Assembly: GCA_031416315.1 (NCBI GenBank)
Contig: JANOTL010000020.1
Location: 1-52,422, forward strand
Length of the DNA: 52,422 nucleotides
Direction of reading: 5' to 3'
From: Pseudomonadota bacterium
GTDB lineage: Bacteria; Bdellovibrionota_B; Oligoflexia; Oligoflexales; CAIYRB01
Made by a program: the position numbers and the translations under genes. This document shows, one piece after another, positions 11,214-43,413 of this stretch; the first letter of the stretch is position 1, and each line of letters begins with the position of its first letter. The notes beneath the pieces were generated by a model. It had not been told where the DNA came from, ran no database searches, and saw nothing but the letters and a program-made list of their open reading frames with translations.

Positions 11214-11218
11214 GACGC

Positions 11219-25972: not shown

Positions 25973-25990
25973 GAGATTTCCTCCGTCATG

Positions 25991-26232: not shown

Positions 26233-26236
26233 CCGA

Positions 26237-27262: not shown

Positions 27263-27312
27263 GGCGTCGGGCTCCTAGAGGAGTTTTCCCGAACCTACCC
27301 TGCACGGGCTCT

Positions 27313-29307
27313 TTACGGCAAGGAGCCGACGATTTGCTGCGCCAGATCGTCGTTCGGACCGGAATTCAATCCAGATTTCCCCCACGACCCCAGAGTCTTG
27401 ACGCTCTCCTGCAAGCGCGTGCGAACGTCCGCCACTGGGGTCGGGCAGACTGGGATGGGCACCTTGAGGGATTCTTGGATCGCGAATAGCGCCGCGCGGT
27501 TTACTGCGAGCGCGGCCGTCCTCGCCGGGGCATCCTTTCCTCTAGCCTCGATGGCCGGAAGCGTCGAAGTCAGCCATTGGTCGAGCGCCGGGCGTACCAT
27601 GCTCCAGCAGCCATTTGCGACAGGCACCCCGAAACCGCGCCCCGTGCCGAAGCGGGAGTCTCCCGCTTCATAAGCGCGTGTGAGTCGTAGCGCGCCGAAG
27701 TACAGCTCATGCATCGGCAGCTCGACCGCGGCTTCCTTGGCCGCATCATGCCAATGCAGCATCTGCGCGTCACCGCCTTCGGTAAATTGCAGCCCGGGAT
27801 CGATGACGAGCCCCGCCGTCAGCCACGGCAGCACCATGCGTTGAGCATCCGCGAGTAGCGCGTCCGGCTCCGGCGCCATCTTCTCGAAGAATTTCGGCGT
27901 GTAGCCCCAGCAACCAAGAACTTCTTGGGCCACGCTTGCTTCGACGCCGCACCCCCTCAACATCGTCACCGCGACCTGGCCGACTTCCCAGATCGAAAAC
28001 CGATGCAGGTCGGGAGCCGCCTTCACGTCGGGAAAGGCCGCTCGGTCATGCCGCATCATGTGTTGTACGACCAGGACGGATTTGAGTTTTTCTCGCGATA
28101 ACCGCTCGGCGACCCCGCCCGGTGAGACGCGTCGCGCGCTGAGGTGGTCCAGAAAATCGTACATGGCCCAAAGTGATTTATCGTCCGGCGTCGCGAGGTA
28201 CTGATTTTGGAGCTTGATCCAGCGCTTTTCGTCCGCGTGATCCCGCGGCTCCATCGGGAGCTCCGGGATCCATTCGGCAGACGTGCGCTCCGCGGCGCCG
28301 TGAAATCCGTCAGCGGTCCACGGATTCAGTTCCAGACCGAGGCGTATCGAACGTACGTCGAGCTCGGCAAATGCTTTGAGCAAGCCTTTCGCGGCCGCGA
28401 GATCCCGCGGCGGCTGCGTCAAATCGATGCCGCCTCTTGCAAGCTCCTTCTCGAAATTCGCATCACGCTCGACGGGCGTCGAGCCGCCCAGCGGCTGGCC
28501 ACCCGGCTGGAACGGCCGAAAGCGAGTCGGACTGCACGGCGTCGTGATTTCGTAACGAGCGCGCAAGGCGTCGATCATGTCGGCGACCAGCATTCCGCCC
28601 TCAGCACTGCGCCCTTGGGCGACGGAGCGCCGCACGATGGTTGCGCGTGAGTAGCCGATGCGTGCCAAGTCGATACCATCGGGCCCGTGGCAGGAGGAAC
28701 AAGCGCCGTCCTTGCCAGAATCTCTCCAGACTGGCAGCCCTTTCGCCATCGTCTCCGCGAAAGCGGCGTCAGAGATCGCAGCAATGGGAGCCAACGGGGC
28801 GACCGAAGTGCCCGGCTGTGGCCCTTCACTTTGCGGAGGTCTCGCTGCCAAAACCGCAAAGTCAGCTCTCAACTGCTCGTCCGTCACGAGCGCTGCGCCG
28901 AAGGCGGGCATCGCCTTCTGTCCTGACCTGACGACGGCGATAAATGCCTCGACCGTGCCGGAGCCAAGGGCTGGAAACTCGGGTCGACCCTCCCCGATCG
29001 AGCCATGGCAGTCAGCGCAGCCGTTGAGGTAGGCGTCGGAGAGCCCTGAAGTTTTCCGCAGCGCCTCGACGGCATCGCGCGTCGGCGGATCAGCGACCGT
29101 GGATCCTTTGCAGATTCCGTCGCCGGACGGAGACTCTATTTTACCGAAGGTGCTCGGCATCGGCGCGACCTGCGTCGGCTCGAAGCCCTCCGCATTGGCT
29201 CCGCTGGGCTTCCTAACATGGACCTCTTTGCCGCCCTGGCGCATAAGGTTACACCCGGCGCAGAGACCGAGCGTCACCAGCCCAACGCTCCAAAGGAGAA
29301 TCTTCAT
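27313..29307 (-). CDS. Diheme c-type cytochrome lipoprotein with large unknown C-terminal domain
   Basis: CAGC lipobox, CADCHG..GEG..FP.L..MPAF, CSSCHG; ATGA overlap with upstream gene. Confidence 0.8.
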   Translation of the reverse strand: MKILLWSVGLVTLGLCAGCNLMRQGGKEVHVRKPSGANAEGFEPTQVAPMPSTFGKIESPSGDGICKGSTVADPPTRDAVEALRKTSGLSDAYLNGCADCHGSIGEGRPEFPALGSGTVEAFIAVVRSGQKAMPAFGAALVTDEQLRADFAVLAARPPQSEGPQPGTSVAPLAPIAAISDAAFAETMAKGLPVWRDSGKDGACSSCHGPDGIDLARIGYSRATIVRRSVAQGRSAEGGMLVADMIDALRARYEITTPCSPTRFRPFQPGGQPLGGSTPVERDANFEKELARGGIDLTQPPRDLAAAKGLLKAFAELDVRSIRLGLELNPWTADGFHGAAERTSAEWIPELPMEPRDHADEKRWIKLQNQYLATPDDKSLWAMYDFLDHLSARRVSPGGVAERLSREKLKSVLVVQHMMRHDRAAFPDVKAAPDLHRFSIWEVGQVAVTMLRGCGVEASVAQEVLGCWGYTPKFFEKMAPEPDALLADAQRMVLPWLTAGLVIDPGLQFTEGGDAQMLHWHDAAKEAAVELPMHELYFGALRLTRAYEAGDSRFGTGRGFGVPVANGCWSMVRPALDQWLTSTLPAIEARGKDAPARTAALAVNRAALFAIQESLKVPIPVCPTPVADVRTRLQESVKTLGSWGKSGLNSGPNDDLAQQIVGSLP

Positions 29308-30227
29308 TCGGCGAAACGTTTGACCGCATCGGCGACGGCGCCGGCGACAGAATCCACCGAAGCATCGCACAGCTCGATGCTCGTCCCGTTTGCCGCGACG
29401 GCGATCGCCGAGAGCCGCGTGGCGACCTTGCTCGTTGCGCCGCAGCTCGTTGCCTTGGACTTATCCGTCGGCGCTACAGCGATGACGATCGACTTGCCTT
29501 TGGTTTGAGTCCGCGCGAGCTTGCTGAAGCCTGCTCCGTCGAGGAACTCCGAGTCGCCGTTTGCGACGACGACGTAGACGCGTCTGGAGTCGGCACGGAA
29601 AAATTTCTGCAATAAGCCCCTGACCGGCTCGAGCGCCCAAAGCCAGGCGTGCCCTAAATCTTCGGGAGTCGCCCCGAGGCGCGATGCGTCGAGGCCGCAG
29701 GCGATCGGCTTTTTGCCTTCCGTGTTATGGGGGTCGGGAAAGCTCGACTTGGTGACCTCGCAGCCTGCGACGAGCGCCGAGAAGAGACCGTCGACCGGCG
29801 CAACTTCGAAGTCGACGGTCTTGTAGCCGTCGGCCGGGACGCCGCTCGGGGCGGACGGCATGGGCTTGCCGCCTCGGTCCCGCTTCCCAGAGACGACCGC
29901 GAGTCGCAGTCCCTTAGCGGCGGCTCCAACCGAAACGACGAGCTTTTGCAGCAAGTCAGGCGCATCCGCCGCTAATTTGGCGCTCGGGTCGTCCAACGCT
30001 AGGGCGATGACGACGTCGACCGGAGGCGCGTCGACGCCAACGGAGCCGGGAGACCCGCTGCCGCTACCGACGACGGCGTCGCTCCCTGAGCCCGTGGTGG
30101 CAGGGTTTGGTGGGGAAGGTTCGCCAGGCGCGGCGGGGGGTTGTGCATCACGCTTGGCGGCCGCGCAGCCTGCCACCGTGAACGCAATCGCTACCATGAG
30201 ACGAAGCTTGATTTGGCGCTTTATCAT
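29304..30227 (-). CDS. Lipoprotein, possibly degenerate vWA-like fold
   Basis: VAGC lipobox, Pro/Gly linker, VDVVIALALDD and RRVYVVVANGDS strands. Confidence 0.65.
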   Translation of the reverse strand: MIKRQIKLRLMVAIAFTVAGCAAAKRDAQPPAAPGEPSPPNPATTGSGSDAVVGSGSGSPGSVGVDAPPVDVVIALALDDPSAKLAADAPDLLQKLVVSVGAAAKGLRLAVVSGKRDRGGKPMPSAPSGVPADGYKTVDFEVAPVDGLFSALVAGCEVTKSSFPDPHNTEGKKPIACGLDASRLGATPEDLGHAWLWALEPVRGLLQKFFRADSRRVYVVVANGDSEFLDGAGFSKLARTQTKGKSIVIAVAPTDKSKATSCGATSKVATRLSAIAVAANGTSIELCDASVDSVAGAVADAVKRFAE

Positions 30228-30235
30228 CGTCTCAA

Positions 30236-30264
30236 GGATACCGAAGTTCGTGAGCGTTTGTGAC
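30236..30264 (-). promoter_or_regulatory. ECF-type promoter GTCACA-N17-GTA
   Basis: minus strand GTCACA-aacgctcacgaacttcg-GTATCC. Confidence 0.65.
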
Positions 30265-30270
30265 ATGCCC

Positions 30271-30307
30271 AAAAAAAGTAGCCCGTCTGCGGACTTAGCA
30301 GACGAGC
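30271..30307 (-). terminator. Rho-independent terminator after MCO operon
   Basis: minus GCTCGTCTGC-taagtcc-GCAGACGGGC-tac-TTTTTTT. Confidence 0.75.
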
Positions 30308-30328
30308 CGACAGGTATGTCCGAACGAA

Positions 30329-30616
30329 TCACGGCTGGACGTGGCACTCCAACTCGCCGTCGTGATTGTGGCAGTTGTAATTGAACTCCATGTTCATCGC
30401 GCCGTGGGTCACGTAGATCTTCACCTTCGAGTCTTCGCCGGTCTTCCAGGACTTGTAGCCGACGAAGTGCTCAGCGTGGTCCGGGTTGGTGGCCTCGAAG
30501 TCTTCGACGGCGAGCTTGGTCACTTCGATGAGCTGCGCCGACGTGAACGCCGCGAATGCCGGCGAGCCGATGACGAGTGCCGCGACGCCGCTGACCAGTG
30601 CAAGAGCTGTCTTCAT
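30329..30616 (-). CDS. Small exported protein with CHxH...CH terminus
   Basis: RBS GAGGGGAG, signal AFA, HAEH, YNCHNHDGELECH. Confidence 0.8.
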   Translation of the reverse strand: MKTALALVSGVAALVIGSPAFAAFTSAQLIEVTKLAVEDFEATNPDHAEHFVGYKSWKTGEDSKVKIYVTHGAMNMEFNYNCHNHDGELECHVQP

Positions 30617-30637
30617 GTTCCACTCCCCTCAATGTGT

Positions 30638-31729
30638 TCAGGTCACTTCGATCCAAGTATGCATGCCGCCCATTTCGTGGGCGGCATGTCCGACCGGCTG
30701 TCCGGGAATCGGGTTGCGGTGCATGTCGTTCATGGTGTGATGCATGAAGTGACAGTGGAAGAGCCACTTGCCGGGGTTCGGGCCGGCGACGAACTCGAAC
30801 GAACGGGCCTCGGCGGAGCTGATGTTTTCCGTGTTCGCCGGCATCTGCATGGAAGGCGGCACGAAGCCGGCGCCATGCTCCGTGATCCGGAACGTATGGC
30901 CGTGGAGGTGAATTGGGTGGCTCAACATGCTGAGGTTGACCACTCGAATGCGCACCCTTTCGCCCATGCGCGCGGACATAGGCACGATGTCCGGCCCCGG
31001 TCGGCCGTTCATGGTGAAGTAATTGAAGTCGTTCATCTCGAGCGTATCTGGGATCGAGCTTCCCGGATGGATCATCCAGATCTGCAGGAAGTAGGCGAAA
31101 TCGCGCTCTACGATCATCCACGGCTCGGGATTCTTCGGATGAACGATGAAGAAGCCCGAGAGGCCCATGCCGACGTGTTTCGCGCCCATGTGATGCGGAT
31201 GGTAGAAATACGTGCCGTGTTGAACGAGCGTGAACTCGACGGTGAAAGTCTCGCCTGGCTCAATCGGCTCCTGGGAGAACCCGGTGACGCCATCCATAGG
31301 GAGCGGCAGATGCAGACCATGCCAGTGTACAGTAGTCGCTTCGGGCAAGTTGTTCGTCACATGAATACGGACGCGGTCGCCTTCGACCGCCTCGATGGTC
31401 GGTCCGATGATCGAGCCGTTGTAGCCCCAGCCGTTGATCGGGCGACGACGAATGCCGTGCGGATCGCTCATGTCTTGGAAGCGGACCGTCACCGGCTCCG
31501 CGACGAGACGGAAGACTTTGACGTTACCCTCCATTTCGAAAGGCAGCGTCGCGATGCCCGGTGTTACCACGGGCACGTAGTTCGAGCTATTCGGCGGCCG
31601 AGGCGTCGGGCTGTCCGCGCGCGCCTTCGGAGTCGCGAGCTCGACGAGTGGCAACATAGCAGCCGTGCCGGCGATACCCGTCATGATATCTCGGCGTGAG
31701 AATTGGCCGCTATTATTCGTGTCAGTCAT
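30638..31729 (-). CDS. Tat-exported small (two-domain) multicopper oxidase
   Basis: SRRDIM Tat motif; HWHG, YHPH, HPIHLHGH, HCHFMHH...M. Confidence 0.92.
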   Translation of the reverse strand: MTDTNNSGQFSRRDIMTGIAGTAAMLPLVELATPKARADSPTPRPPNSSNYVPVVTPGIATLPFEMEGNVKVFRLVAEPVTVRFQDMSDPHGIRRRPINGWGYNGSIIGPTIEAVEGDRVRIHVTNNLPEATTVHWHGLHLPLPMDGVTGFSQEPIEPGETFTVEFTLVQHGTYFYHPHHMGAKHVGMGLSGFFIVHPKNPEPWMIVERDFAYFLQIWMIHPGSSIPDTLEMNDFNYFTMNGRPGPDIVPMSARMGERVRIRVVNLSMLSHPIHLHGHTFRITEHGAGFVPPSMQMPANTENISSAEARSFEFVAGPNPGKWLFHCHFMHHTMNDMHRNPIPGQPVGHAAHEMGGMHTWIEVT

Positions 31730-31767
31730 GACTCCCCCAATGTCTTCCAGCAGTACTATTCTACGTA

Positions 31768-31796
31768 CACTACTTCCTGAAAGGCCCGTTTGTGAC
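31768..31796 (-). promoter_or_regulatory. ECF-type promoter GTCACA-N17-GTA upstream of MCO
   Basis: minus strand GTCACA-aacgggcctttcaggaa-GTAGTG. Confidence 0.65.
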
Positions 31797-31798
31797 GG

Positions 31799-33472
31799 TC
31801 AAGGCGTGCGCTGATAGTGAATGAGCCGATTTTCTGGGAGCGGTACGCCCCAAATTGGCGCACCCGGCCAAAGCAACATGAGACGTCCGTCGGCATCGAC
31901 CACTCCCGTGACCATCCGCGGCCGGTCTCGCTCTTCGGTCAGCCACGCGAGCGTTCCCGTATACGAATCATACGAACCTTGTGCGATTTTGACGCGGACG
32001 CCGAGCCCGCCTGACAAATGCATGGCGCCTTCAAAGGCCAGAGTGCTTTCCTCGCGTCCGACGGGTTGCGTCGGCAATAAGGTGTCGAAGCCCCAGCGAA
32101 CGTCTGAAGAGCTGCCCACGGCCGGTCCTTGGTACGTCCCAGTAATCGGCGCCAACACTTTCGCCGTCGGATCCAGGGGAGGCAGTGGCCCCTTGACGAG
32201 CTGAATGGTTCCCACTCGTCCAAAGGCATGCGAATACCAGACGCCGCGGATGAAGCCTTGGCGCCATTCCTCGACCTGCAGGAAGCCGTCGCTGTTCGGG
32301 CTTTCGAGGTTGAAGCCCGTACTCAGATAGAAACTGCGGCGATCGAACTGCTGAGGCCACCCTTCCGCGTGCGTGTCTCGACCAAAGTGCTGCACACCGG
32401 TCGCCGTAATGACGACCTCGTTCTCGTTATGAGGGTTGTCCGAAGACACGGTCGACATCACGTTGAGGCGAAAGGGCTGATAGCGGTCCAGCGTCTCATT
32501 GTGGAGCCAGCCGGAGAAAGTGCCTCGCAAGGCGTTGACGAGCGCCGTGCTGCGAGGCGGAAGTGGAGCCGGCAACTCAAGGCGTTGCTCAGGGGTGGTT
32601 CGGACGTTGTAATTTCGCCCCGACACGACGAAGGGTCGCGTCGATACGTCGGTCTTGCGCAAGTCGCAGCTCACCGTCTCATCCAAAAACCGGATGCGAC
32701 ACGTGAGGCGACCGGCGGCCAACGCGCATTCGCTCGTCCCCGTCGGCTCGTCGAGAATCAGCTTTCCGGAGAAGTAATTGTAGCTGCCGCCCGAAAAGTT
32801 TCGGACCACGCACCACTCTCCGTCGCAGATGGACGAGTCGCCCTCGGCAAGCCGCGCGACGACGCCATAACCGTGTAGGCCCCGGTCCGCGGCTCCCGAT
32901 ACCGCAAGCCCTTTGCCCGTCGAGATTTGCATGGCCCAGCGCTTCGCTCCGCAGAGTCCTTCGTATTGTCCCGAGAGGCTCGCCATGAACGGCACATCCG
33001 CCCCCGGATCTCCGTCGTCGTCATCGTCGTCGGGCTCGTCCGACAGGTGTTTCAGGAAGATCGTGCCGCTCACCGACGCTGAGCGTACCCACACCTGACC
33101 CGTCACCGTCGTGCTCCCGCCTGCACGGACTTCCGCGGCAATGACTAGGTCGTTGTTCGGCTCGTCGAGCGAGAGCTGGCCATTCGAGAAATCGTAGCGG
33201 ATGTCTTCGAAGATCTCGGTCACATATTCCGAGCCGCCGTAGCCGCCCAGCTGCAGGCGAAAGATCGCATTCAGCTTCGGAAACTGAGTCCGATCGTCGG
33301 GCTGGTCGATATAGGTGTCGACGGTGAGCGCGACGCGTTCACTCGCGTCGTCGAGCTTGACGTAGCCGACGTAGCGTCCGAGCTTCAATTCAGCTTGACC
33401 GAAAGCGGCCGAGCAAGGGAGCCAAATGGTTGCCAGCAGGACAAAGAGGCCACGGAGCAAGTTCGAGCGCAT
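31799..33472 (-). CDS. Large exported beta-rich protein of unknown function (paralog A)
   Basis: 557 aa, signal peptide, colinear similarity to 36712-38451. Confidence 0.85.
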   Translation of the reverse strand: MRSNLLRGLFVLLATIWLPCSAAFGQAELKLGRYVGYVKLDDASERVALTVDTYIDQPDDRTQFPKLNAIFRLQLGGYGGSEYVTEIFEDIRYDFSNGQLSLDEPNNDLVIAAEVRAGGSTTVTGQVWVRSASVSGTIFLKHLSDEPDDDDDDGDPGADVPFMASLSGQYEGLCGAKRWAMQISTGKGLAVSGAADRGLHGYGVVARLAEGDSSICDGEWCVVRNFSGGSYNYFSGKLILDEPTGTSECALAAGRLTCRIRFLDETVSCDLRKTDVSTRPFVVSGRNYNVRTTPEQRLELPAPLPPRSTALVNALRGTFSGWLHNETLDRYQPFRLNVMSTVSSDNPHNENEVVITATGVQHFGRDTHAEGWPQQFDRRSFYLSTGFNLESPNSDGFLQVEEWRQGFIRGVWYSHAFGRVGTIQLVKGPLPPLDPTAKVLAPITGTYQGPAVGSSSDVRWGFDTLLPTQPVGREESTLAFEGAMHLSGGLGVRVKIAQGSYDSYTGTLAWLTEERDRPRMVTGVVDADGRLMLLWPGAPIWGVPLPENRLIHYQRTP

Positions 33473-33489
33473 GAGAGCCTCACTGGTTT

Positions 33490-33506
33490 ATACCCCCCTG
33501 GGGTAT
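33490..33506. promoter_or_regulatory. CsoR/RcnR-type operator between paralog A and csoR
   Basis: ATAC-CCCCCTGGG-GTAT. Confidence 0.85.
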
Positions 33507-33603
33507 CTAATCTCGCAGGCTAACGCCAGCAAATTTAAATTTAAGTCGCCACGTCAGAGTGGCTTCACTTGACCGCGCGGCGGTAGCGGGATAGCAGCTT
33601 GGC

Positions 33604-33915
33604 ATGAAAAAAAAAGCCGTCGCGAAAAAAGCGACCGTCGCCAAGCACCATCCTGACCACGCCCAAGAGCTTCGGCGCCTCAATCGCATCGTCGGCCAGC
33701 TCGAAGGCGTTGGACGCATGATCGAAGAACGACGCTATTGCTGTGACATTCTGCAGCAGACGCGTGCCGTCACTTCGGCGATCCGCGGTCTGGAGGCCGC
33801 GATCCTTTCCACGCATTTACGCCACTGTTTCACCGCCGCGATCGAAACGAAGAGCGAAGAGGCTCGGGCGAAGGTCATCGAGGAATTCGTCGACTTGTAC
33901 GAGCAGCGGCGCTGA
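33604..33915 (+). CDS. csoR: CsoR/RcnR family metal-sensing repressor (Cys-His-Cys)
   Basis: RLNRIVGQLEGVGRMIEERRYCCDIL...THLRHC. Confidence 0.9.
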   Translation: MKKKAVAKKATVAKHHPDHAQELRRLNRIVGQLEGVGRMIEERRYCCDILQQTRAVTSAIRGLEAAILSTHLRHCFTAAIETKSEEARAKVIEEFVDLYEQRR

Positions 33916-33988
33916 GCGTGGTCTGCCTGAATCATGCCTACCGACATTGCAGTGATTTCAGGACCGTAGCCGACCCGCACAGGCCTCT

Positions 33989-34017
33989 GTCACAAAGCGC
34001 TGCCCTGCCCAGTATCT
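33989..34017 (+). promoter_or_regulatory. ECF-type promoter GTCACA-N17-GTA
   Basis: GTCACA-aagcgctgccctgccca-GTATCT upstream of the 34036 / anti-sigma / sigma genes. Confidence 0.7.
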
Positions 34018-34035
34018 ACGGGTGGGAGGTGCGAT

Positions 34036-34446
34036 ATGCGAATTTTCAGCTCGAGTGCTTTGATGTTCCTCACGGCGCTCGGCAGCTCGAAGGCGTTCGC
34101 TCACGGGGAAGACAAACTCGGTCCCAATGGCGGTTTCATCCGTATGCCAGGAGCGTTTCACACCGAGGTCGTACCGACCGCGGACCGCGAGTTCTCCGTT
34201 TTCTTACTCGACCTGAGCAACGGCAATCCGGTGACGGATGGCTCGACGGTCTCGGTCAGTCTCAGGAAGGGCGGCGCCTCGGTCGACGTGACCTGCACCC
34301 CGGCAGCGGCGAGCTTCAAGTGCGTGCTGCCTGCGGACGCAAGCCTGAAATCCGGTCAGCTGCTCGTCCGTGCCTCGCGGCTCGGACTGCCTTCCAGCCC
34401 CGCGTTGTACCCTCTGCCATTGAAGCTGGAGCAGGGTGCGCATTGA
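34036..34446 (+). CDS. Exported protein with N-terminal His, putative metal-binding
   Basis: RBS GGAGGT; AFA|HGEDKLGPNGG...FHTE; Cys pair. Confidence 0.78.
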   Translation: MRIFSSSALMFLTALGSSKAFAHGEDKLGPNGGFIRMPGAFHTEVVPTADREFSVFLLDLSNGNPVTDGSTVSVSLRKGGASVDVTCTPAAASFKCVLPADASLKSGQLLVRASRLGLPSSPALYPLPLKLEQGAH

Positions 34447-34477
34447 TTTGCTGCGCCCGATTCGGGAGAATGCGTCG

Positions 34478-34993
34478 ATGAGCATCAAACGTCTTCAAGA
34501 GCCTCCGCAACGACTCGACCTGGCGATCGAGCGCGCCGTATTGCGCGACCTGGAGCCGGCGATCGCGGTCGTACACCTGAAGACGGCCGCGGCCGCGATC
34601 GTGGGCAGTCTGCTGTCGCTCGCGATCTGTGGGCAGTTTGGAATGGGGTTCACGTCGCTAGCCGACTCCTTCAGCCACGCGCTCCATGCGAACATGGGTC
34701 CGATAGCATGCGCGCTGATCTGCGGCGGGCTTTACGCGATCTTCCCGATCGCGATCCTTCGCTTCGTCCTTTGTAACGTCATGCAGTTTAGAGCCATTTT
34801 TCGTCGAAGCTTCTTTATCATGGCCGCTTGGTTCGCCTGCGTCGGAGCCGTCATGGCTTGGCAAGGCCACCACGGCGATCAAGCTCTCCAGTTCGGTGCT
34901 TGGATCTTCGCAGCTCTGGTCGCGGCGATCGTCCTAGGACGCTTGGCCGGGGCGATCGTCATGCCAATCTTTGACGCACCGGAACGCGTCTAG
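34478..34993 (+). CDS. 4-TM protein with Cys/His, putative anti-sigma factor
   Basis: AICGQFG, HALH, ACALICG, GHHG; adjacent to ECF sigma. Confidence 0.65.
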   Translation: MSIKRLQEPPQRLDLAIERAVLRDLEPAIAVVHLKTAAAAIVGSLLSLAICGQFGMGFTSLADSFSHALHANMGPIACALICGGLYAIFPIAILRFVLCNVMQFRAIFRRSFFIMAAWFACVGAVMAWQGHHGDQALQFGAWIFAALVAAIVLGRLAGAIVMPIFDAPERV

Positions 34994-35022
34994 ACCGTTT
35001 CGTCTCGGCAGAATGGACGCCA

Positions 35023-35038
35023 ATACCCCTGGGGGTAT
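35023..35038. promoter_or_regulatory. CsoR/RcnR-type operator upstream of ECF sigma
   Basis: ATAC-CCCTGGGG-GTAT (8-bp core). Confidence 0.75.
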
Positions 35039-35067
35039 ACTCTTCCTCACCAGTTGAAGTGGGCCCC

Positions 35068-35610
35068 ATGCAGTCGATCGCGGACGAGGAATCGCTCGAA
35101 TCTCTTCTAAGTAGGTATCGCGGGGGAGACGCGGGCGCGTTCCGCGAGGTCTACCGGCGTACGAAGCGGCTGGTTTATGCGTATCTTCGTCGACGTCTCA
35201 GACAGACTTCGGACGTCGAAGACGTCTTCCAAGAGACGTATTTTCGGGTTCACAAGTATATCGCGACCTACGACCCGACTCGAGGCGGTACCACTTGGAT
35301 CCTATCGATCGCGCGGCATGCGATGCTGACCCGCGCCGCCGAGCTCAAGAAGAGCGCTGCGACGGCGGGTCCGCATCTGACGGACGACCTTGCTGGAACG
35401 GAATCGACCGCCGAAGGCGTCGAGATCAAGGGACTGTTGACTGACCTCTGTCGCGATTTATCGCCAGACGAGATCGACCTGCTCTATCAACGGGTCTTTT
35501 TGGACGTCGGGTTCGACGTGCTCGCCGCTCGGCACCAGACGAGCGAGGCGAATACGCGACAGCGCCTTTCGCGATTGATGCGGAAGCTTCGATCGAACTG
35601 GGGCAGCTGA
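35068..35610 (+). CDS. ECF RNA polymerase sigma factor
   Basis: GDAGAFREVY, DVEDVFQETY, WILSIARH, RQRLSRLMRKLR; start 35059 or 35068. Confidence 0.9.
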   Translation: MQSIADEESLESLLSRYRGGDAGAFREVYRRTKRLVYAYLRRRLRQTSDVEDVFQETYFRVHKYIATYDPTRGGTTWILSIARHAMLTRAAELKKSAATAGPHLTDDLAGTESTAEGVEIKGLLTDLCRDLSPDEIDLLYQRVFLDVGFDVLAARHQTSEANTRQRLSRLMRKLRSNWGS

Positions 35611-35636
35611 CGTCGCTTGCCCCCTATGGCAAATGC

Positions 35637-36317
35637 CTATCGAGGCGTGGGTCCAGGTCCCGGGCCGGGTGCCGGACCAGGGTCGGGAGCGGGCCCTGGC
35701 CCTGGACCCGGACCGGGGCCCGGACCTGGTTCGGGACCTGGCTCGGGACCGCCAGGATCTGGATCCGGTCCCGGCCCTGGATCGGGAATCGGTGTCGGAT
35801 CAGGCGCAGGCTCGGGAGCGGGAACCGGGTCGGGCAAATCCGGGACGTCGGGAATCTGAATCGAGGTTCCTGACGGCTGATTCGGCAGCTCTGGATAGAC
35901 GAATGGTGCCGGTTTCGGACGGTCGAGCAGCGCCGATACGGAATCCTCGTCATTTTGCGGCTTCCGCTTGCACAGGGGCACTTTGCGACCCGTTCGCCCG
36001 AACGACTCGGCGAGCTGGAGCGCAATGTCCGCCTGCTTCGCCTTCGACTCGCCGATCTCGAGATCGAGCTCCGCGAGCTTGGACGCGGTTCGTAGGATCT
36101 CGTACTCCTCGCGAGAGATCGCGTCCCGCTCGAGGAGCTGCTCCGCGCGCGCGTATGCCTGGCGCGCGCGTGAAAGTCGAGCTTTCTGGCGCGCGAGCGA
36201 ACCGTAGGCACGTTCCTTTGCGGACGCGAAGAGATAGAGATGCGTCGACTCCGCCATGACCGGCGTCGCGACGAAGAAAAATCCCACTAGGAGCCAAGCG
36301 CAGCGCGCCATGTTCAT
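35637..36317 (-). CDS. Exported alpha-hairpin protein with Pro/Asp/Gly tail
   Basis: Signal peptide; RAEQLLERDAISREEYE; KVPLC; PD/PE/PG tail; ATGA coupling. Confidence 0.75.
   Translation of the reverse strand: MNMARCAWLLVGFFFVATPVMAESTHLYLFASAKERAYGSLARQKARLSRARQAYARAEQLLERDAISREEYEILRTASKLAELDLEIGESKAKQADIALQLAESFGRTGRKVPLCKRKPQNDEDSVSALLDRPKPAPFVYPELPNQPSGTSIQIPDVPDLPDPVPAPEPAPDPTPIPDPGPGPDPDPGGPEPGPEPGPGPGPGPGPGPAPDPGPAPGPGPGPTPR
35646..35856 (-). repeat. Low-complexity hexanucleotide-like repeat encoding (P-x)n tail
   Basis: PDPGPGPDPDPGGPEPGPEPGPGPGPG. Confidence 0.8.
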
Positions 36318-36715
36318 TCCATCTCGTAAGTGCAGAGCGGAATCGAGACGCCGCGATTGACGAGGCCGGTGATGATCTTGAGGTAGGCTTTCGACTCGTC
36401 GACTTTCTGGTTCGCCAGGTCGATGTCCGCCTTCGACACGGCGTCGTCGGAGACCAGGGTCTCGTATTCTTCGAGGGACATGGCCCGACTCGCAATCAGC
36501 CGGCGCCCACGCTCGAGCTTCGAGGCGGCGAGCTCCGCGAGCGCCGCTTTACGTCGGCTGTTCGCCTCCGCCTGCGCGACCCGCAAACGGTAGAGCTCGA
36601 TGTACGGGTTGTCGTCGCCAGCGGTCTCATCCGCGTAGGCGTAATACCCGAGCGTAGCGCCCAATCCGAGCGCCAGCGTCGTCGCCGCGATCCAGATCTT
36701 GATCCTTGCCTTCAT
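36314..36715 (-). CDS. Exported alpha-hairpin protein (paralog of 35637-36317 core)
   Basis: AYA signal; RGRRLIASRAMSLEEYE; SIPLC; ATGA coupling on both sides. Confidence 0.78.
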   Translation of the reverse strand: MKARIKIWIAATTLALGLGATLGYYAYADETAGDDNPYIELYRLRVAQAEANSRRKAALAELAASKLERGRRLIASRAMSLEEYETLVSDDAVSKADIDLANQKVDESKAYLKIITGLVNRGVSIPLCTYEME

Positions 36716-38451
36716 GGTTCCACCCCCATACGAGAATAAGTGCCAAACTCTCGATCAAAAACGCTGACGGCCCAGGCGCGCTCGTTCGGCCAGAAAAGTT
36801 TCAGGTCGCCGCGATCACCCACCCGCCCCGTAACGAGGCGGGTCTCGCCATCATTCGCGGCGTCGACGACCCAGGCTAGGGAGCCCGAGTAAAAGTCGTA
36901 GGCGCCTTCCGTGATGCGAATGGAGGGCCAAGACACGCCACCGGCGGTTAGGCGCGAGTTTCCTTGGAACACGAGCAGGCTCTTGTCTGAGGTCCTAGGC
37001 TGGGTCGGCACGAGAAGCTTCGCATCCCAGAATTCACGGCCGTCGGCACTGCGCTCCGACGGACCATGGAAGTCGCCGATGACGGTGGGAACCATGCGTG
37101 CGCGGGCGTCGAGCGTCGGGAAGCGGTCCGATTTCACGACCTGAAAGGTTCCGACTCGACCGAACTCGCGTGAATACCAGACCCCGGTGACCAGTCCGCG
37201 TTGCCATGTCGAGACTTGGAGGAAGCCGTCGGTTCCCTCGCTCGAAAGAATGAAGCCCGGGACGACGTACAAGGACCTCCGATCATACTGCTGCGCAAGT
37301 AGGTCGGGGCTTTGACCTCGGCCGAAATAAAGCACCGAAGTCACGGAGACGTGGACCACGTTTTCATTGTGCGGGTTGATCGAGGAGTTCGTCGCGACCA
37401 CGTTCAGACGAAGCGGCTCATAGAGACCAGTCGTCTCATTGTGCAGATAGCCGAAGAAGGACCCGCGAGCAGCGGTAATGAGCTCGGCATTTGCCGGCGG
37501 CAATGGATCGGGAAGCGCACGCCGTTGATCCGGCGTGCTGGCGACGTTGTAGAAGCGGGACTTGGGCTCGTACTCGGTGATCTCACTGCCGACCCGATGG
37601 AAGCGGCAGTCCTTTTCGAGGAGGCCGTCGCCGTTTCTGGGAATGATGTGCATGCGGCAGGAGAAAGACGCGCCGTCGCGTTGGCACTCGTTGGTCTCAA
37701 GCGTCCCGGACAAGAAGAGCTTGCCCTGATAGTAATCATACTGCCCCGAAGAAAAGGCGTGGTCGACGCACCAGACCGGGCGACCGGAGGCATTGACGGC
37801 CGAGCACAGACCGTTGCCGATGCCGAGGGCTCCGGTAATCTTGTAATCGTGAAATCCGCTCGTCGGCTCGGAGCCCGCGTCCGAGAGGCCGCGAGCCGTC
37901 TCGATCTGAAGAACCGCGGACTCTTCGCCGCACGCGCCCTCGTACTGCCCGGAAAGGGTCGGCGCCAGGGGAGGCAACGGCCCGGTTCCGCCGCCACCCG
38001 GCTCGTCGCTCTGGAAATAGAGGACCAGTCGGCCCATCTGCCCGGTCGAGCGGAAGACGACTTCACCCTCCATCTGCGTAGGGTTCGAGTAGACGACGGC
38101 GGTCACGATCATCTCGTTCTCGGCTTCGTCGAGGGCCAGCACTCCTAGATCGTAGCTATAATTGACCGCGATGAAACGCTGCGTCTCATACTCGCTCGAA
38201 ACGAAGCCGCCGAGGCTCACCCGAAAAAGGAGCTCCAAGCGCTGAAAGGCGTCAATGCCATCGGGCTTGAACAGGTAGCTGTCCATGGTGAGCGCCAGAG
38301 CATCAGATTGACCCTCCGGCTGCACGTACCCGACCCACTTGCCGAGCATGAGCTCGCCCCCAGGCTCGCGGGCATCTGCGACGGAATGTGTGCTCACGGC
38401 CAGCGTCGACATCAGCAACGTGCTTACGAGTCGGAAGATGGTTCTCATCAT
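36712..38451 (-). CDS. Large exported beta-rich protein of unknown function (paralog B)
   Basis: 579 aa, signal peptide, colinear similarity to 31799-33472. Confidence 0.85.
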   Translation of the reverse strand: MMRTIFRLVSTLLMSTLAVSTHSVADAREPGGELMLGKWVGYVQPEGQSDALALTMDSYLFKPDGIDAFQRLELLFRVSLGGFVSSEYETQRFIAVNYSYDLGVLALDEAENEMIVTAVVYSNPTQMEGEVVFRSTGQMGRLVLYFQSDEPGGGGTGPLPPLAPTLSGQYEGACGEESAVLQIETARGLSDAGSEPTSGFHDYKITGALGIGNGLCSAVNASGRPVWCVDHAFSSGQYDYYQGKLFLSGTLETNECQRDGASFSCRMHIIPRNGDGLLEKDCRFHRVGSEITEYEPKSRFYNVASTPDQRRALPDPLPPANAELITAARGSFFGYLHNETTGLYEPLRLNVVATNSSINPHNENVVHVSVTSVLYFGRGQSPDLLAQQYDRRSLYVVPGFILSSEGTDGFLQVSTWQRGLVTGVWYSREFGRVGTFQVVKSDRFPTLDARARMVPTVIGDFHGPSERSADGREFWDAKLLVPTQPRTSDKSLLVFQGNSRLTAGGVSWPSIRITEGAYDFYSGSLAWVVDAANDGETRLVTGRVGDRGDLKLFWPNERAWAVSVFDREFGTYSRMGVEP

Positions 38452-38485
38452 GTTTGCGAACTGCCCCCTTTGGTTCTTGCGGGCA

Positions 38486-38514
38486 CTCTACTCGCGCTCG
38501 GAGAGATTTGTGAC
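38486..38514 (-). promoter_or_regulatory. ECF-type promoter GTCACA-N17-GTA
   Basis: minus strand GTCACA-aatctctccgagcgcga-GTAGAG. Confidence 0.7.
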
Positions 38515-38531
38515 ATTCAGAAAGGATCGGG

Positions 38532-38548
38532 ATACTCCTCGGGGGTAT
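38532..38548. promoter_or_regulatory. CsoR/RcnR-type operator upstream of paralog B
   Basis: ATAC-TCCTCGGGG-GTAT. Confidence 0.75.
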
Positions 38549-38592
38549 AGTCCACGGGACATTCCTGCGCAAGAGGGCACGGCCCTCGTGCG

Positions 38593-38817
38593 TCAAGTGA
38601 GCGCAGTCCCTTTATATCCGGCGTCCGTCAGCGCATCGATCAGAAGAGCCACTGGGGCCTTTTCCGGATCGTGATCGACCACGACTTTTCCGTCGCTCAG
38701 AGTGACTTTGACGTCCCCAACCCCAGGGAGAGCCGTCAGCGCGTGGCTCACATGTCGCACGCAAGATTGGCAGGTCATGCCGTCCACCTTCAAGGCCGTA
38801 TGTCTTTCGGTCGTCAT
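38593..38817 (-). CDS. copZ: Copper chaperone (HMA domain)
   Basis: VDGMTCQSC...AGY; RBS AAAGGAG. Confidence 0.92.
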   Translation of the reverse strand: MTTERHTALKVDGMTCQSCVRHVSHALTALPGVGDVKVTLSDGKVVVDHDPEKAPVALLIDALTDAGYKGTALT

Positions 38818-38847
38818 GCTGTCTCCTTTCGTTTCCTCGCTCTTAAA

Positions 38848-38873
38848 GACGAGAACGCGCGCCGAACCTTACA
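38848..38873 (-). promoter_or_regulatory. ECF-type promoter TGTAAG-N16-CGTC for copZ
   Basis: minus TGTAAG-gttcggcgcgcgttct-CGTC; mirrors 38949-38974. Confidence 0.72.
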
Positions 38874-38948
38874 CGACGAGCGCGATCTTCAGGACCGAGA
38901 TCAATTTATCATTTTAGATCAATATGTTACGTAGCGGAAGGGTTTTTC

Positions 38949-38974
38949 TGTAAGTTTCGGCGTCACAGCTCGTC
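38949..38974 (+). promoter_or_regulatory. ECF-type promoter TGTAAG-N16-CGTC for copA-sigma operon
   Basis: TGTAAG-tttcggcgtcacagct-CGTC. Confidence 0.72.
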
Positions 38975-39016
38975 TCTTACCTCGAGTCCGAGTTACGAAC
39001 TAGACGAAGAGGGAAT

Positions 39017-41245
39017 ATGCGCACCGCCGACCTGCCAGCACCACGTTCGATCGCAAAAACAGAGACGAAGGAAGAGACGCAATCATTTGCCATCGAAGGC
39101 ATGACCTGCGCCTCGTGCGTGCGCCACGTCGAGAAGGCATTGCTGTCCGTCGACGGCGTAACCAAGGCAACCGTGAACCTGGCGACCGAGAAGGCCTTGG
39201 TCGAAATGCGCGCCGAAGTCGACCCGCAAAGTCTCGTGAATGCCGTCGCCAAGGCCGGCTACGACGCCACGCCTATCGTAAAGGGCGACACGCGGAAGAC
39301 GGTCACGACGCCCTCGAGTGGGTCGGAGCTGTGGCGTGTCATTCTCGCAGCGCTCTTATCCATGCCGCTGGTGATGCCGATGCTCGCCGAGCCATTCGGC
39401 GTGCACTGGATGCTACCTGGATGGGTCCAACTCCTTTTTGCGGCCCCAGTTCAGTTTTGGCTCGGCGCAAGGTTCTACCGCGCCGGTTGGAAGGCGCTGC
39501 GAGCCGGCAGCGGCAACATGGATCTCCTGATCGCGATCGGGACGTCGGCGGCCTTCGCGCTGAGCTTGGCGCATTTTTCGACCGGTCCGCTCTACTTCGA
39601 GAGCTCAGCGGTCATCATCACGCTCGTCCTCTTAGGGAAATGGCTCGAGAGTCGGGCCAAGCGGCAGACGACCGAAGCCATTCGCGCCTTGAGCGCCCTC
39701 CAGCCAGAGCGAGCAATCGTGCGCCGCGGCGGGCGTGACGAGGATGTTGCGATCGACGCGCTTCGCGTCGGCGATGTTTTGGTCGTGCGACCGGGCGAGC
39801 GTGTTCCGACCGACGGCGTCGTCACCGAAGGAGCAAGTCACGTCGACGAGTCGTTGATCACGGGAGAAAGCGTTCCCGTGGCGAAGAAAATCGACGACAC
39901 CGTCACTGGCGGCGCCATAAATGGGGAAGGGCTCCTGCTCGTCCGCGCGTCCGCCGTCGGCGCCGAGACCACGCTGGCGCGAATCGCGCGCATGGTAGAA
40001 AGCGCTCAAGAAGGCAAAGCGCCCATTCAGCGCATAGCCGACAAGGTCAGCGCGGTTTTCGTGCCGATCGTCCTGGCGATCGCCGCCTTGACGTTTGCCG
40101 GCTGGTGGCTCGTGAGCGGTGATGTGGCTGCCGCTGCACTCAACGCCGTCGCCGTGCTCGTAATCGCTTGTCCTTGCGCACTAGGGTTGGCCACGCCGAC
40201 GTCGATCATGGTCGGGACGGGAATGGCGGCCCGTCACGGGATCTTGATCAAAGATGCCGAGGCGCTCGAGATCGCGCATTCGATTAAGACGATCGCCTTC
40301 GACAAGACGGGGACGCTAACTGAAGGGCGCCCGGAATTGGTCCGCATCGTCGCGGCGAACGGCACGGACGCCGAGCTTCTCCAGATCGCGGCCTCGATCC
40401 AGCGTGGAAGCGAGCACCCCTTGGCGCGGGCCGTGACCTCCCGCGCCGCAGAGACTTCGCAATCCCTACCGTCCGCCACGAACACGAAGGCTTTGCCCGG
40501 TCGCGGCGTCGAGGCCGAGGTCGACGGCAAGAAGTACCTCCTCGGCAGCGCGCGGCTCATGCACGAGTCGGCCGTACCGCTCGGCGAGCTCCTCGGGGTC
40601 GCCACCTCCCTCGAAGCCGAAGGCCACACGGTTTCCTGGCTCGCCGCGCCGGGGACGGGACAAGCGCTCGTCGGACTTCTCGCCTTCCGTGATGCCGTAA
40701 AGCCGACGGCCAAGGCCGCCGTGCAGCGCCTGCACGATCAAGGCATTCGGACGGTCATGGTCTCCGGCGACAACCAGCGTGCTGCACAGCGCGTCGCGAC
40801 CGAGCTGGGAATCAGCGAGGTCGTCGCCGAGGTGCTTCCTGCCGACAAAGCCGGGGTCATCGACCGGCTGCGGAGCGCTGGTGGCGTCGTCGCCATGGTT
40901 GGAGACGGGGTCAACGACGCACCGGCTTTGGCGCGCGCCGACGTCGGAATCGCCATGGGTACCGGAACCGACGTCGCCATGCATGCCGCAGGCGTCACCT
41001 TGATGCGAGGCGACCCACGCCTCATCTCTGACGCCGTCGATATCTCACGGCGTACCTACCGCAAGATCAAGCAGAACCTATTTTGGGCGTTCGCTTACAA
41101 CATCATCGGGATTCCGCTGGCCGCGCTCGGTATGCTGAGTCCGATCCTCGCCGGCGCCGCCATGGCCTTCAGCAGCGTGAGCGTCGTAGCCAATGCGCTT
41201 CTGCTGCGCCGCTGGCATTCGAGCGCCAGCACGGGTAAATCATGA
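39017..41245 (+). CDS. copA: Cu(I)-translocating P1B-type ATPase
   Basis: GMTCASC, TGES, CPC, DKTGT, SEHP, GDGVND, YN and MAFSS. Confidence 0.97.
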
Positions 41246-41799
41246 GCAAGAACGCGAAAGTCTCCGAGGACGTCGTCAAAGCCCTGGTCGAAATCCACCG
41301 GGGCTTCCTTCGTTACCTGACGCCCAAGGTCGAGAGTCCGGCGATTGCCGAAGAAATATTGCAGAATGCGTTCGTCAAGACCTTGGAGAAGGGTTCGGAA
41401 TTGCGCGACGGAGAATCCGCCGTCGCCTGGTTCTACCGGCTGTTGAGGAACTCGTTGATCGACCACTACCGGCATCGGGACGTCGAGCGGCGCGGCCTGT
41501 CGAAGGAGGCGCGGGAATCGGCGCCGCTCGCAGAGGCGCTCGACGATCTGGCGAAAGCAACGATCTGTGGCTGCTTGCGCCTCATCCTTCCCGATCTCAA
41601 GCCGGAGTATGCCCAGGCGCTGAACGTCGTCGACCTCGACGAGCGCAGCATCACCGAGTACGCGGCTGAGGCTGGAATTACCGTCAACAACGCCAACGTC
41701 CGACTGCACCGGGCCCGAGTGGCGTTGAAAAGTCGGCTCGAGGTGAGCTGCGGCACTTGTGCGACGCATGGTTGCTTGGACTGCTCCTGCCATAGATGA
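41242..41799 (+). CDS. CorE-like ECF sigma factor with Cys-rich C-terminal domain
   Basis: CGC between regions 2 and 4; tail [14 protein letters not shown]; coupled to copA; no adjacent anti-sigma. Confidence 0.88.
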
Positions 41800-41814: not shown

Positions 41815-43413
41815 TCAAATCCGTCCCTGCTTCAGTTCGTCCGCCAAATGACCTGATGCCCTACCTGCGATCGCCATCATCGCAAATGTTGGGTTCTGCC
41901 AGGCTCCGGTGGGCCAAGCGGCACCGTCCATGACGAAAACATTTGGGGCGTCCCAGCATTGCGCGTAGCCATTTAGAACCGAGCGGCGAGCGTCGGTTCC
42001 CATGCGGGCCGTCCCCATCTCGTGCACGAACGCTCCCGGATCCATGAGCGTGGGTGCGCCGTTGATGCGTCCGCCTGTCGCCTCGACCATTTCGCGCACC
42101 TCTTCGAGCATGTGCTTGCGCATGGCGTGCTCGTTGTCCGAGAACTCGCAGTCGATCTCGAGCAGCGGGATACCCCACGCATCAGCGCGTTCCTTATGGA
42201 GCGTCACGCGATTCTCGAAGCGCGGCAACATCTCGCCATATCCGACGAGCATGAATGGCACCTCGTTCGCGTCGCAGGTCTTTCTTAAGTCTTGTCCTCT
42301 CCCGTGTCGGCCGAATCCGCCGAAGAATCCGTAGCCCCGGAGGAACGAGCCGCCAGCGCGATTTTCGAGGTTATGATACCGCGGAATGAGCACGTTCTTC
42401 GGCCCACCATATCCGCCGGTCCACGCGACGTCCCGCTGCCCAGGAACGAAGCCGCTGACGATCAAGCCGGGATGATCCATCAGGTAGCGCCCCAGCACGC
42501 CGGATGAATTGCCAAGACCCTCCGGGTGATGCCGAGATTTCGAGTTCAGTAGGATGCGGGTCGACTCGAGCGTGGAGGCGCAGACCGCGACGGTGCGGCA
42601 GGCGACTTCGTAAGCGCGCTTCGTGTTCCGATCGACGAAAGCGACGCCGCGGGCGCGGCCGTCGTCCCCGACGAGGATGTGACTGACGACCGCGTCCGCG
42701 CGCAGGCTGACGCCCGGCATGCCGAGCGCCGCGCGCGTCGGTGACGGCACCGGTGGCTCGCCGTTCAATCGTGAGGAAGGCCTCGCCAGAACGCCGCGCG
42801 ATGCAACGACCGCGCGACCGAAACGTTTGCCGACGGTCGATTGAAAGGTGCGCTCGGCGTTGGTGAGCGCACAGGTGCCGCGATACTTGCCGTCCGGAAG
42901 CTGCGGCAGGCCGTCGTGTGCACCGTACACGGGCAAGAAGTCGTCGATCCGGTCGAAGTGCGGGCGAAGCGCCTCATAGTCGAACGGCCAGCGATCGCCG
43001 AAGCCGTCTTGCTCCGGCGCGCGCAGCTCGTGGTCCGAGAGGCGTACGCCGATACCGCCCCAGGTCAAGAGGCGGCCGTTGACGCCGCGGCTGCGGATCC
43101 ACTGAAACGGCTTGCTCGGAGGCGTCTCGTACGGCAGCTCGTTGTCGCGCACGAAGTAGTCCGGGTCGAGCTCCCCGTAGGCGGGGCATTTGGACTGAAC
43201 CGTGCGGCAGCTCACGATCCGATCGGCGGCGCGCTTGATGCGTAAGATCCAGGGCCGGCCGCCCCTCGCTGCATCGGGGCCGTCGGCGCCGGCTTCCAGG
43301 ACCATCACGGAAAGCCCGCGTGACGCCAGCTCGCGCGCGGCCCAGCCGCCTGTCGCGCCGGAGCCGATCACGACCACGTCCCACACGCGCGATTCGACTG
43401 AGGTGCCCTTCAT
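41815..43413 (-). CDS. GMC-family FAD oxidoreductase
   Basis: DVVVIGSGATGG, ESTRILLNS, GRYLMDH, HEMGTARMG, QNPT. Confidence 0.93.
   Translation of the reverse strand: MKGTSVESRVWDVVVIGSGATGGWAARELASRGLSVMVLEAGADGPDAARGGRPWILRIKRAADRIVSCRTVQSKCPAYGELDPDYFVRDNELPYETPPSKPFQWIRSRGVNGRLLTWGGIGVRLSDHELRAPEQDGFGDRWPFDYEALRPHFDRIDDFLPVYGAHDGLPQLPDGKYRGTCALTNAERTFQSTVGKRFGRAVVASRGVLARPSSRLNGEPPVPSPTRAALGMPGVSLRADAVVSHILVGDDGRARGVAFVDRNTKRAYEVACRTVAVCASTLESTRILLNSKSRHHPEGLGNSSGVLGRYLMDHPGLIVSGFVPGQRDVAWTGGYGGPKNVLIPRYHNLENRAGGSFLRGYGFFGGFGRHGRGQDLRKTCDANEVPFMLVGYGEMLPRFENRVTLHKERADAWGIPLLEIDCEFSDNEHAMRKHMLEEVREMVEATGGRINGAPTLMDPGAFVHEMGTARMGTDARRSVLNGYAQCWDAPNVFVMDGAAWPTGAWQNPTFAMMAIAGRASGHLADELKQGRI

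Follow-up and report, generated by a model that had tools for sequence, protein, structure and literature searches.

A CsoR-type operator over an extracytoplasmic function sigma factor gene suggests a two-level copper switch in a member of the Oligoflexales

In the Has system of Serratia marcescens, the metal repressor Fur acts on the gene of HasI, a sigma factor of the extracytoplasmic function (ECF) type, and not on that of its anti-sigma factor HasS. The sigma factor transcribes the gene of its own anti-sigma factor, which is inactivated by an envelope cue (as described in passages of PMC9249621). Here we describe a locus of related logic in contig JANOTL010000020.1 of a bacterium from the Oligoflexales (assembly GCA_031416315.1); the whole stretch of 52,422 nucleotides that was analysed is called the window. 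A CsoR-type operator lies over the gene of an ECF sigma factor, which follows the gene of a predicted membrane anti-sigma factor. The arrangement probably, though by no means surely, constitutes a two-level copper switch, in which CsoR would act on a sigma-70-type promoter of the sigma gene and the membrane protein on the sigma factor itself. Fur–HasI/HasS is the nearest described logic, and by this analogy the architecture is thus of a known kind. Has responds to iron starvation and employs Fur, a TonB-dependent receptor and an anti-sigma factor resembling FecR (the same passages). By contrast, the locus in the window has a repressor type associated with metal excess, putative detoxification outputs and an anti-sigma candidate with four predicted transmembrane (TM) helices carrying cysteines and histidines, and autoregulation by read-through may occur.

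Other described systems share parts of this logic. In Fur–FecI/FecR, the repressor acts on the sigma promoter and on a sigma-dependent target promoter, forming a feed-forward loop, and transcription of the sigma gene starts from a sigma-70 promoter; however, fecI and fecR are co-transcribed, serve iron uptake and include an unrelated anti-sigma factor (passages of PMC9249621). The ECF16 pairs SigF–NrsF/OsrA combine a multi-TM anti-sigma factor bearing periplasmic cysteines with a heavy-metal or oxidative response, but NrsF has six TM helices and a DUF1109 domain, the promoter is GTAACC-CGTA, and the relevant parts of PMC7826278 describe no CsoR layer. In ECF291 CnrH–CnrY–CnrX, treated in the same parts, the sigma factor drives resistance-nodulation-division (RND) efflux next to multicopper oxidases in response to an envelope metal cue; there, a single-TM anti-sigma factor works with a separate periplasmic sensor encoded upstream, whereas the window encodes one multi-TM protein. 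The Cu(I) CsoR regulons of Streptomyces lividans, Bacillus subtilis and Mycobacterium tuberculosis resemble the locus in their Cys-His-Cys repressor and in TAC-G/C-GTA operators placed over the −10 element. The targets named for them are of the copZA type (passages of PMC3902906 and PMC11672702), whereas the putative targets here comprise a sigma factor, the cytochrome lipoprotein and all-beta proteins, and copZA lacks a site. An ECF gene upstream of copZA has been reported, with no change of the sigma factor in a csoR mutant (parts of PMC7730460 and PMC4801387). The one copper-responsive ECF factor treated in parts of PMC10141476, CorE, has no anti-sigma factor; the envelope copper sensing described is that of two-component kinases. 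Literature on CsoR, on ECF and anti-sigma factors and on copper in Bdellovibrio and Oligoflexia, searched mostly at abstract level, yielded neither a CsoR-controlled ECF factor nor this anti-sigma family. Term searches in sections of the ECF reclassification text and supplement (PMC7826278) found no CsoR input, no such new anti-sigma family and no copper-excess cue. A CsoR-family repressor with a sigma factor as its target would thus have no counterpart in the literature searched, and the pair differs in its features from the named ECF groups considered below.

The window contains exactly four matches to ATAC-N6–10-GTAT, at 25991–26007 (ATACCCGGGGGGAGTAT), 33490–33506 (ATACCCCCCTGGGGTAT), 35023–35038 (ATACCCCTGGGGGTAT) and 38532–38548 (ATACTCCTCGGGGGTAT), where the first-pass annotation, made from the sequence, had placed them; 0.48 matches were expected, and four were reached in one of 100 shuffles. 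A strict form of the motif (a core of N8–9 with at least 75% GC and a CCC or GGG run) occurs six times in the 6.36-Mb genome; four of these occurrences are on the contig of the window, and the reversed control gave none. The core between TAC and GTA measures 8 bp at 35023 and 9 bp at the other sites, so that three of the four fit the TAC-X9-GTA pattern with G/C tracts of copper CsoR operators (described in part of PMC3902906). The site at 35023, a perfect ATAC/GTAT repeat around a C4-T-G5 core, is 1.1 kb from csoR; as claimed earlier, it falls between the anti-sigma and sigma genes, in the 74-bp gap from the stop codon at 34993 to the ATG at 35068. The site at 33490 separates the divergent genes of csoR and of an exported protein, paralog A; that at 25991 precedes the GTG start codon of a c-type cytochrome lipoprotein gene; and that at 38532 lies between the copZ stop codon and the −35 element of the ECF promoter of a second exported protein, paralog B. 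The distances to the start codon are 18 bp at 25991, 17 bp at 33490 and 29 bp at 35023, and the right arms of these operators enter −10-like hexamers (TATCAT, TATAAA and TATACT, respectively). At 38532 there is only TATCCC, which is not a good sigma-70 −10 element. Among the csoR-linked sites of relatives, checked in 19 loci, N9 is the predominant core, whereas N10 occurs twice and N8 once. In most of the order's genomes, the looser pattern TACYCC-N1–4-GGGGTA was no more frequent than its control; therefore, only gene-linked matches were used. Operator arrangements like that of paralog A and csoR also occur in two other genomes (G009, L139; G024, L144), and in a third (G011, L110/L152) the operator likewise precedes a homolog of the cytochrome lipoprotein.

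The ECF sigma gene (35068–35610, plus strand) encodes a 180-residue protein with a Sigma70_r2 domain, which matches TIGR02937 over residues 24–176 with 63 bits (cut-off 42.9) and no named subfamily. It consists of sigma2 and sigma4 regions only and is shorter than 200 residues, as is the rule for ECF factors. The operator at 35023 takes up the spacer of a sigma-70-type promoter, TGGACG-16-TATACT (35014–35041, plus strand), and reaches into its −10 element. This is the only sigma-70 consensus call in positions 25000–39500 (14.5 kb); because shuffles give 2.5 calls, it counts solely for its position over the operator. The sequence supports the view that this operator-bearing promoter would serve the sigma gene alone. 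Assignment of the sigma factor to described groups was rejected in each case considered. ECF16 (SigF–NrsF) is excluded by the partner, which is not of the DUF1109/NrsF type and has about four TM helices rather than six, and by the promoter, GTCACA-N17-GTA instead of GTAACC-CGTA. The Cys-rich C-terminal extension of ECF238 (CorE) is absent from the product of 35068–35610 and present in another sigma factor of the window (41242–41799). Unlike ECF41, ECF103, ECF250 and ECF288, which recognise a TGTCAC −35 element, the sigma factor has no SnoaL or Cys-rich extension, its partner is a multi-TM protein, and the −10 element is GTA. Fur-type cell-surface signalling (FecIR, HasIS) was dismissed, as FecR is not among the matches listed for the partner family and the repressor is CsoR.

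The CsoR-family repressor (33604–33915, plus strand; 103 residues; PF02583, E = 1.8e-24) has as its closest solved relatives the Cu(I) CsoRs of S. lividans (4adz), of the Geobacillus type (4m1p) and 2hh7, with InrS next. The Cu(I) class is defined by x-C-H-C ligands, according to passages of PMC11672702. In the repressor from the window, C46, H72 and C76 align with the Cys-His-Cys ligands at the X-Y-Z positions of the three structures, and Y45 and E93/E94 are present. Tyr and Glu residues have a second-shell role in Cu(I) CsoRs, and the protein is predicted to be of the Cu(I)-sensing type. Of its N-terminal histidines, H15 and H16, the former aligns across a gap with H21 of InrS; the copper sensor of S. 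lividans also has a His in that stretch. A second CsoR-family gene, coding for an H-C-H-C protein, is located near an RND gene on another contig of the genome (C134, about 17930–18210). It is unlikely to own the four sites, because of its ligand set and because it has its own C/G-tract site without TAC/GTA arms.

The predicted anti-sigma factor (34478–34993, plus strand; 171 residues) has a cytoplasmic N-terminal helix and about four TM helices in an AlphaFold2 (AF2) model with a predicted local distance difference test (pLDDT) score of 92.5. Among 95 genomes of the order, 37 encode relatives, and among 131 of the phylum, 60 do. The family comprises 687 clusters at 50% identity, and its members in Bacteriovoracaceae and Bdellovibrionales are annotated as hypothetical proteins. 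When 26 and 55 members were scanned against Pfam and NCBIfam, scattered sub-threshold matches and no family were obtained; NrsF was absent among the matches for the 26 members at E = 5 and among the 25 of 31 families listed for the 55, and a search of the same genome for PF06532 gave no match. The model had no Foldseek match at E = 0.001, its best VIA match (Z = 7.6) is an uninformative designed helical bundle, and an Atlas search returned only unnamed Bdellovibrionota clusters. No relatives were found in plasmids or viral contigs.

Association with the sigma factor was assessed in a non-redundant set of 69 anti-sigma genes from 66 loci, covering most, not all, matches. A sigma gene lies within 700 bp in 61 of the 69, farther away in four, and is missing from the stretch in four. 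The sigma gene comes first in 44 cases, the genes are convergent in ten and divergent in three, and the anti-sigma gene comes first in four. The first-pass annotation was thus right that the order in the window reverses the usual one; the idea that this is special in itself was rejected, since several orders occur among the loci and the order is inherited. Trees of the two proteins show matching groupings. The predicted sigma/anti-sigma complex scores 0.68, compared with 0.01 for the best control, with a contact agreement of at least 84% across runs and a partner pLDDT of at least 78; the mark used for this score is reached by 116 of 157 solved pairs and by 2 of 215 mismatched pairs. In the predicted complex, anti-sigma residues 5–26 and 101–109 touch sigma region 2; the sigma residues contacted include F25, Q55 and H62, each of them invariant across 42 sigma factors. 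The 171-residue protein is therefore predicted to be an anti-sigma factor that binds the sigma factor through its cytoplasmic domain.

Residues C51, C78, C82, H70, H131 and H132 are on the predicted periplasmic side of the membrane. The topology fits the positive-inside rule, with a Lys plus Arg value of 4.2 in the loop 95–113, compared with 0.7 and 0.3 in the loops with Cys and His. The three cysteines are kept in 35 of 36 rows of clade II, the group of the sigma factor from the window, and in 18–19 of 19 others; the histidines are less conserved (H131 in 19 and H132 in 25 of the 36). The proposal that this protein senses envelope metal agrees with the placement of these residues, but Cys-based redox sensing fits equally well. 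It is conceivable that the same wiring answers other cues, namely periplasmic thiol oxidation or disulfide stress, as for NrsF/OsrA, and/or nickel or cobalt through the repressor. The near-invariant cysteines beside variable histidines speak for this alternative, as do dsbA/dsbB-like genes (labelled by sequence inspection) among the surrounding metal-resistance genes, an RcnR-type H-C-H-H repressor at a related locus (L029), and the sensing of metal or oxidative stress by ECF16 anti-sigma factors through periplasmic cysteines (parts of PMC7826278). We nevertheless regard it as unlikely, given the copper-rich regulon and neighbourhoods (multicopper oxidase, CusA-like pump, CopA) and the Cu(I)-sensor Tyr and Glu retained by CsoR.

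The spacer of the motif GTCAC(A/G)-N-GTA in the loci of relatives is 17 bp in 114 of 154 matches. A position weight matrix (PWM), built from 58 sites of relatives with the window excluded, puts the sites at 33989, 30264, 38514 and 31796, in this order, in the first four places of the genome-wide ranking and those at 20522 and 13902 in the sixth and seventh, so that the contig carries the top four and six of the top seven matches. Exact GTCACA-N17-GTA occurs 13 times in the genome, six of them in the window; the reversed control occurs five times, none in the window. The loci at which the motif recurs have nothing but the sigma factor encoded at 35068 in common, from which we infer that the motif belongs to this factor and not to the other two of the window. 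The highest-scoring promoter (33989–34014, plus strand, PWM score 26.5) precedes the genes of a small exported protein and the anti-sigma factor, and possibly serves the sigma gene by read-through. The others, all on the minus strand, are at 30239–30264 (rank 2, 22.7), before lipoprotein and cytochrome c genes at 30.2–27.3 kb; at 38489–38514 (rank 3, 22.4), before paralog B; at 31771–31796 (18.9), right after the paralog A stop codon and before the multicopper oxidase operon; at 20497–20522 (18.1), before an OEP-MFP-RND efflux operon (20446–14490) with an OEP Pfam match; and at 13877–13902 (17.9), before a small exported open reading frame (ORF). A second, CusCBA-like RND operon (44918–51471) stands behind a degenerate promoter, ATCACA-N17-GTA (score 16.3); its counterpart in many relatives is preceded by an exact ECF promoter.

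Paralog B carries both a CsoR-type site and an ECF promoter, the operator ending 16 nt before TGTCACA and 17 nt before GTCACA, in line with the 17 bp reported earlier. The feed-forward control proposed there is the weakest part of the scheme: both elements are present, but the operator would lie upstream of the −35 element, at approximately −67 to −51 relative to the ECF start, and lacks a good −10. It could lower the activity of the ECF promoter or stop transcripts that run on from copZ, or it could be left over from an arrangement like that of paralog A. The multicopper oxidase gene appears to be a better case of dual control, as it lies behind paralog A, which is putatively under CsoR, and is preceded by an ECF promoter of its own. 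In relatives, the oxidase gene follows either a CsoR site (L025, L063, L144, L145) or an ECF promoter (L022, L042, L047).

No terminator was called between the anti-sigma and sigma genes, and read-through that starts at the ECF promoter at 33989 may reach the sigma gene as well, in which case CsoR control would not be the sole input of this gene. CsoR at 35023 might even act mainly as a roadblock on this read-through, so that copper would gate the positive feedback and a sigma-only promoter would play no meaningful part. Two relatives (L021, L038) have promoter, anti-sigma and sigma genes in tandem without an operator, ten of the 24 clade-II sigma genes are distal to an ECF promoter on the same strand, and the operator at 38532, which separates copZ from paralog B, likewise lacks a good −10. 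However, the right arm at 35023 is TATACT with a −35 element at 16 bp, a geometry shared with locus L057 and other sites, and a roadblock alone could not start the loop. The roadblock is a rather unlikely explanation.

In a tree of 64 sigma factors, that from the window belongs to a clade of 24 (clade II, support 100/99). An ECF promoter within 200 bp upstream of the sigma gene is found in none of the 24, compared with 31 of the 40 outside (including one long-branch, probably unrelated row); in clade II, the ECF promoter drives the anti-sigma gene. The closest relative, L021, has promoter, anti-sigma gene and sigma gene without the operator, which indicates that the order was inherited and that the operator-bearing promoter was added in this lineage or lost in its kin. 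In genome G053 (L057), the csoR and sigma genes overlap and lie behind an N9 operator within TTGACC-18-TATATT; a gene that we take to be azurin-like comes next, and the anti-sigma gene is divergent under an ECF promoter. At the metagenome locus L029, the H-C-H-H repressor gene with its site, a presumed cation transporter gene and the sigma gene form one run. Approximately unbiased (AU) tests, based on a quick tree of 29 rows with groups named after the first tree was seen, reject clades that join the L057 and L029 sigma factors to that from the window (p = 8e-5 and 4e-5). By these comparisons, the CsoR–sigma link is recurrent, not conserved, and appears on separate branches; losses elsewhere are possible. 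Conservation of the operator in homologous loci, which the first-pass annotation had proposed as a check, was not found: among the five genomes with CsoR and a visible upstream region of a clade-II sigma gene (a count to which G011 and G062 do not belong), the operator lies over the sigma gene only in G000 and G053. Genome G001, from the same genus, has seven anti-sigma matches and four sigma copies on five contigs (C44, C314, C647, C733 and C375; L021, L022, L024, L158 and L159), and some of its anti-sigma genes are in separate ECF-driven units.

Several observations weigh against the two-level copper switch. The operator is absent from the four sigma copies of G001 and from G024, and the stretch visible in G009 (148 bp) does not show it. 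CsoR-family genes occur in 14 of the 95 genomes of the order, compared with 37 for the anti-sigma gene, and only 34 of the 66 loci have a homolog of copper or metal efflux proteins or oxidases within the fetched stretches. The TGGACG element and 16-bp spacer are mediocre, and comparable promoters arise in shuffles (2.5). H15 and H16 are near the W position of the nickel sensor InrS and leave some nickel cross-response possible. The complex score may just mirror likeness to solved sigma/anti-sigma pairs. Finally, the N8 core at the sigma gene departs from TAC-X9-GTA (part of PMC3902906) and from the predominantly N9 sites of relatives. The sigma and anti-sigma factors might then be the functional sensor, with a weak or non-functional N8 site, CsoR controlling the three N9 sites only and no cascade existing. 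The nearest relatives without the operator and an N8 look-alike inside a coding region of G053 (L123) agree with this. It is nevertheless quite improbable in view of the perfect repeat and its core, the short gap and proximity to csoR, the rarity of the strict motif, and the same wiring in L057. The idea that cytoplasmic copper could derepress the sigma gene apart from its anti-sigma gene is supported in part by the predicted Cu(I)-type CsoR and the operator in a putative sigma-only promoter, but is weakened by the N8 site, the possible read-through and the presence of the operator in only two of five genomes.

The two-level copper switch could work as follows. At low copper, CsoR at 35023 would shut off the internal promoter, and it may stop transcripts reading through from 33989 as well. 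A rise in cytoplasmic Cu(I) would release a sigma-only transcript, and sigma factor in excess of the anti-sigma factor would fire the GTCACA-N17-GTA promoters of the anti-sigma operon, the multicopper oxidase, paralog B, the lipoprotein and cytochrome genes, and the RND pump. The anti-sigma gene is likely transcribed by the sigma factor itself, and new anti-sigma factor would recapture the sigma factor unless its periplasm-facing Cys3/His site was occupied by metal or oxidised. Because of this recapture, cytoplasmic copper alone would give a pulse and both cues together a sustained response.

Control of copA and copZ by CsoR was rejected, because no CsoR site was found there. Within 38593–41799 the two genes are divergent, and each has a TGTAAG-N16-CGTC pair instead. 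The copA gene overlaps that of a SigZ/CorE-like ECF factor (41242–41799) with a CxxCxxHxCxxCxC tail, to which the TGTAAG-N16-CGTC pair may be attributed; the passages of PMC3107203 give no CorE promoter consensus. With this sigma factor, copZ and copA would make up a third copper-sensing layer of the island. Locus L139 (G009:C473, 1723–5346) has a CsoR-family operator followed by a paralog A/B stub, a CorE-like sigma gene and copA, divergent from an H-C-H-C repressor gene, and is possibly a second kind of CsoR-to-ECF cascade.

The window is a single contig (C20) of a genome that is 93% complete, and its GC content is 60.9%, compared with 64.9% for the genome. The metal-resistance island on it includes two RND systems, a multicopper oxidase, CopA, CopZ, CsoR and three ECF sigma factors. 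Paralog A (31799–33472, minus strand; 557 residues), encoded upstream of the multicopper oxidase (30638–31729, minus strand; Cu-oxidase Pfams), is 38% identical to paralog B (36712–38451, minus strand; 579 residues), an exported all-beta protein (AF2 pLDDT 86.6) whose fold search gave no clear or usable match. Both are members of a family of exported all-beta proteins that has no name, shows conserved Cys pairs and an NPHN motif, and is encoded next to multicopper oxidases; contig C111 of the genome has two further copies. The lipoprotein at 25391–25972 (minus strand) has a CxxCH haem motif in its sequence and weak cytochrome c matches. The small exported protein before the anti-sigma gene (34036–34446, plus strand) has a signal peptide followed by HGEDK and no match in a Pfam scan, and it precedes the anti-sigma gene in several relatives. 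Convergent on the sigma gene is an ORF (35637–36317) with a long Pro-Gly/Asp repeat as its tail, and its neighbour (36314–36715) weakly resembles an RND adaptor hairpin. Another ECF factor is encoded with a Cys-rich multi-TM partner at 3291–4455. A rhodanese-like gene comes next, and upstream of it, at 4466, stands TGTCACAC. The island is interrupted at 6545–12751 by glycosyltransferase, decarboxylase-like and flippase-like genes and at 41815–44345 by genes of a GMC oxidoreductase and an aldo-keto reductase.

More tentatively, the sigma factors may form an undescribed ECF group that is widespread in Oligoflexia and other Bdellovibrionota. Its four-TM anti-sigma factor would be a direct periplasmic copper receptor (Cys3) without a separate sensor, and in one clade the sigma gene would have lost direct autoregulation and come, repeatedly and in independent events, under CsoR or RcnR repressors. 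If the proposed reading is true, the 687 clusters without a Pfam family represent a new family of membrane anti-sigma factors with a defined promoter, from which regulons could be predicted across many uncultured genomes. The four-part circuit is compact and could be rebuilt in E. coli. The same CsoR–sigma wiring would have arisen on separate branches, and it would be a copper-excess counterpart of Fur–HasIS that compares cytoplasmic and periplasmic metal.

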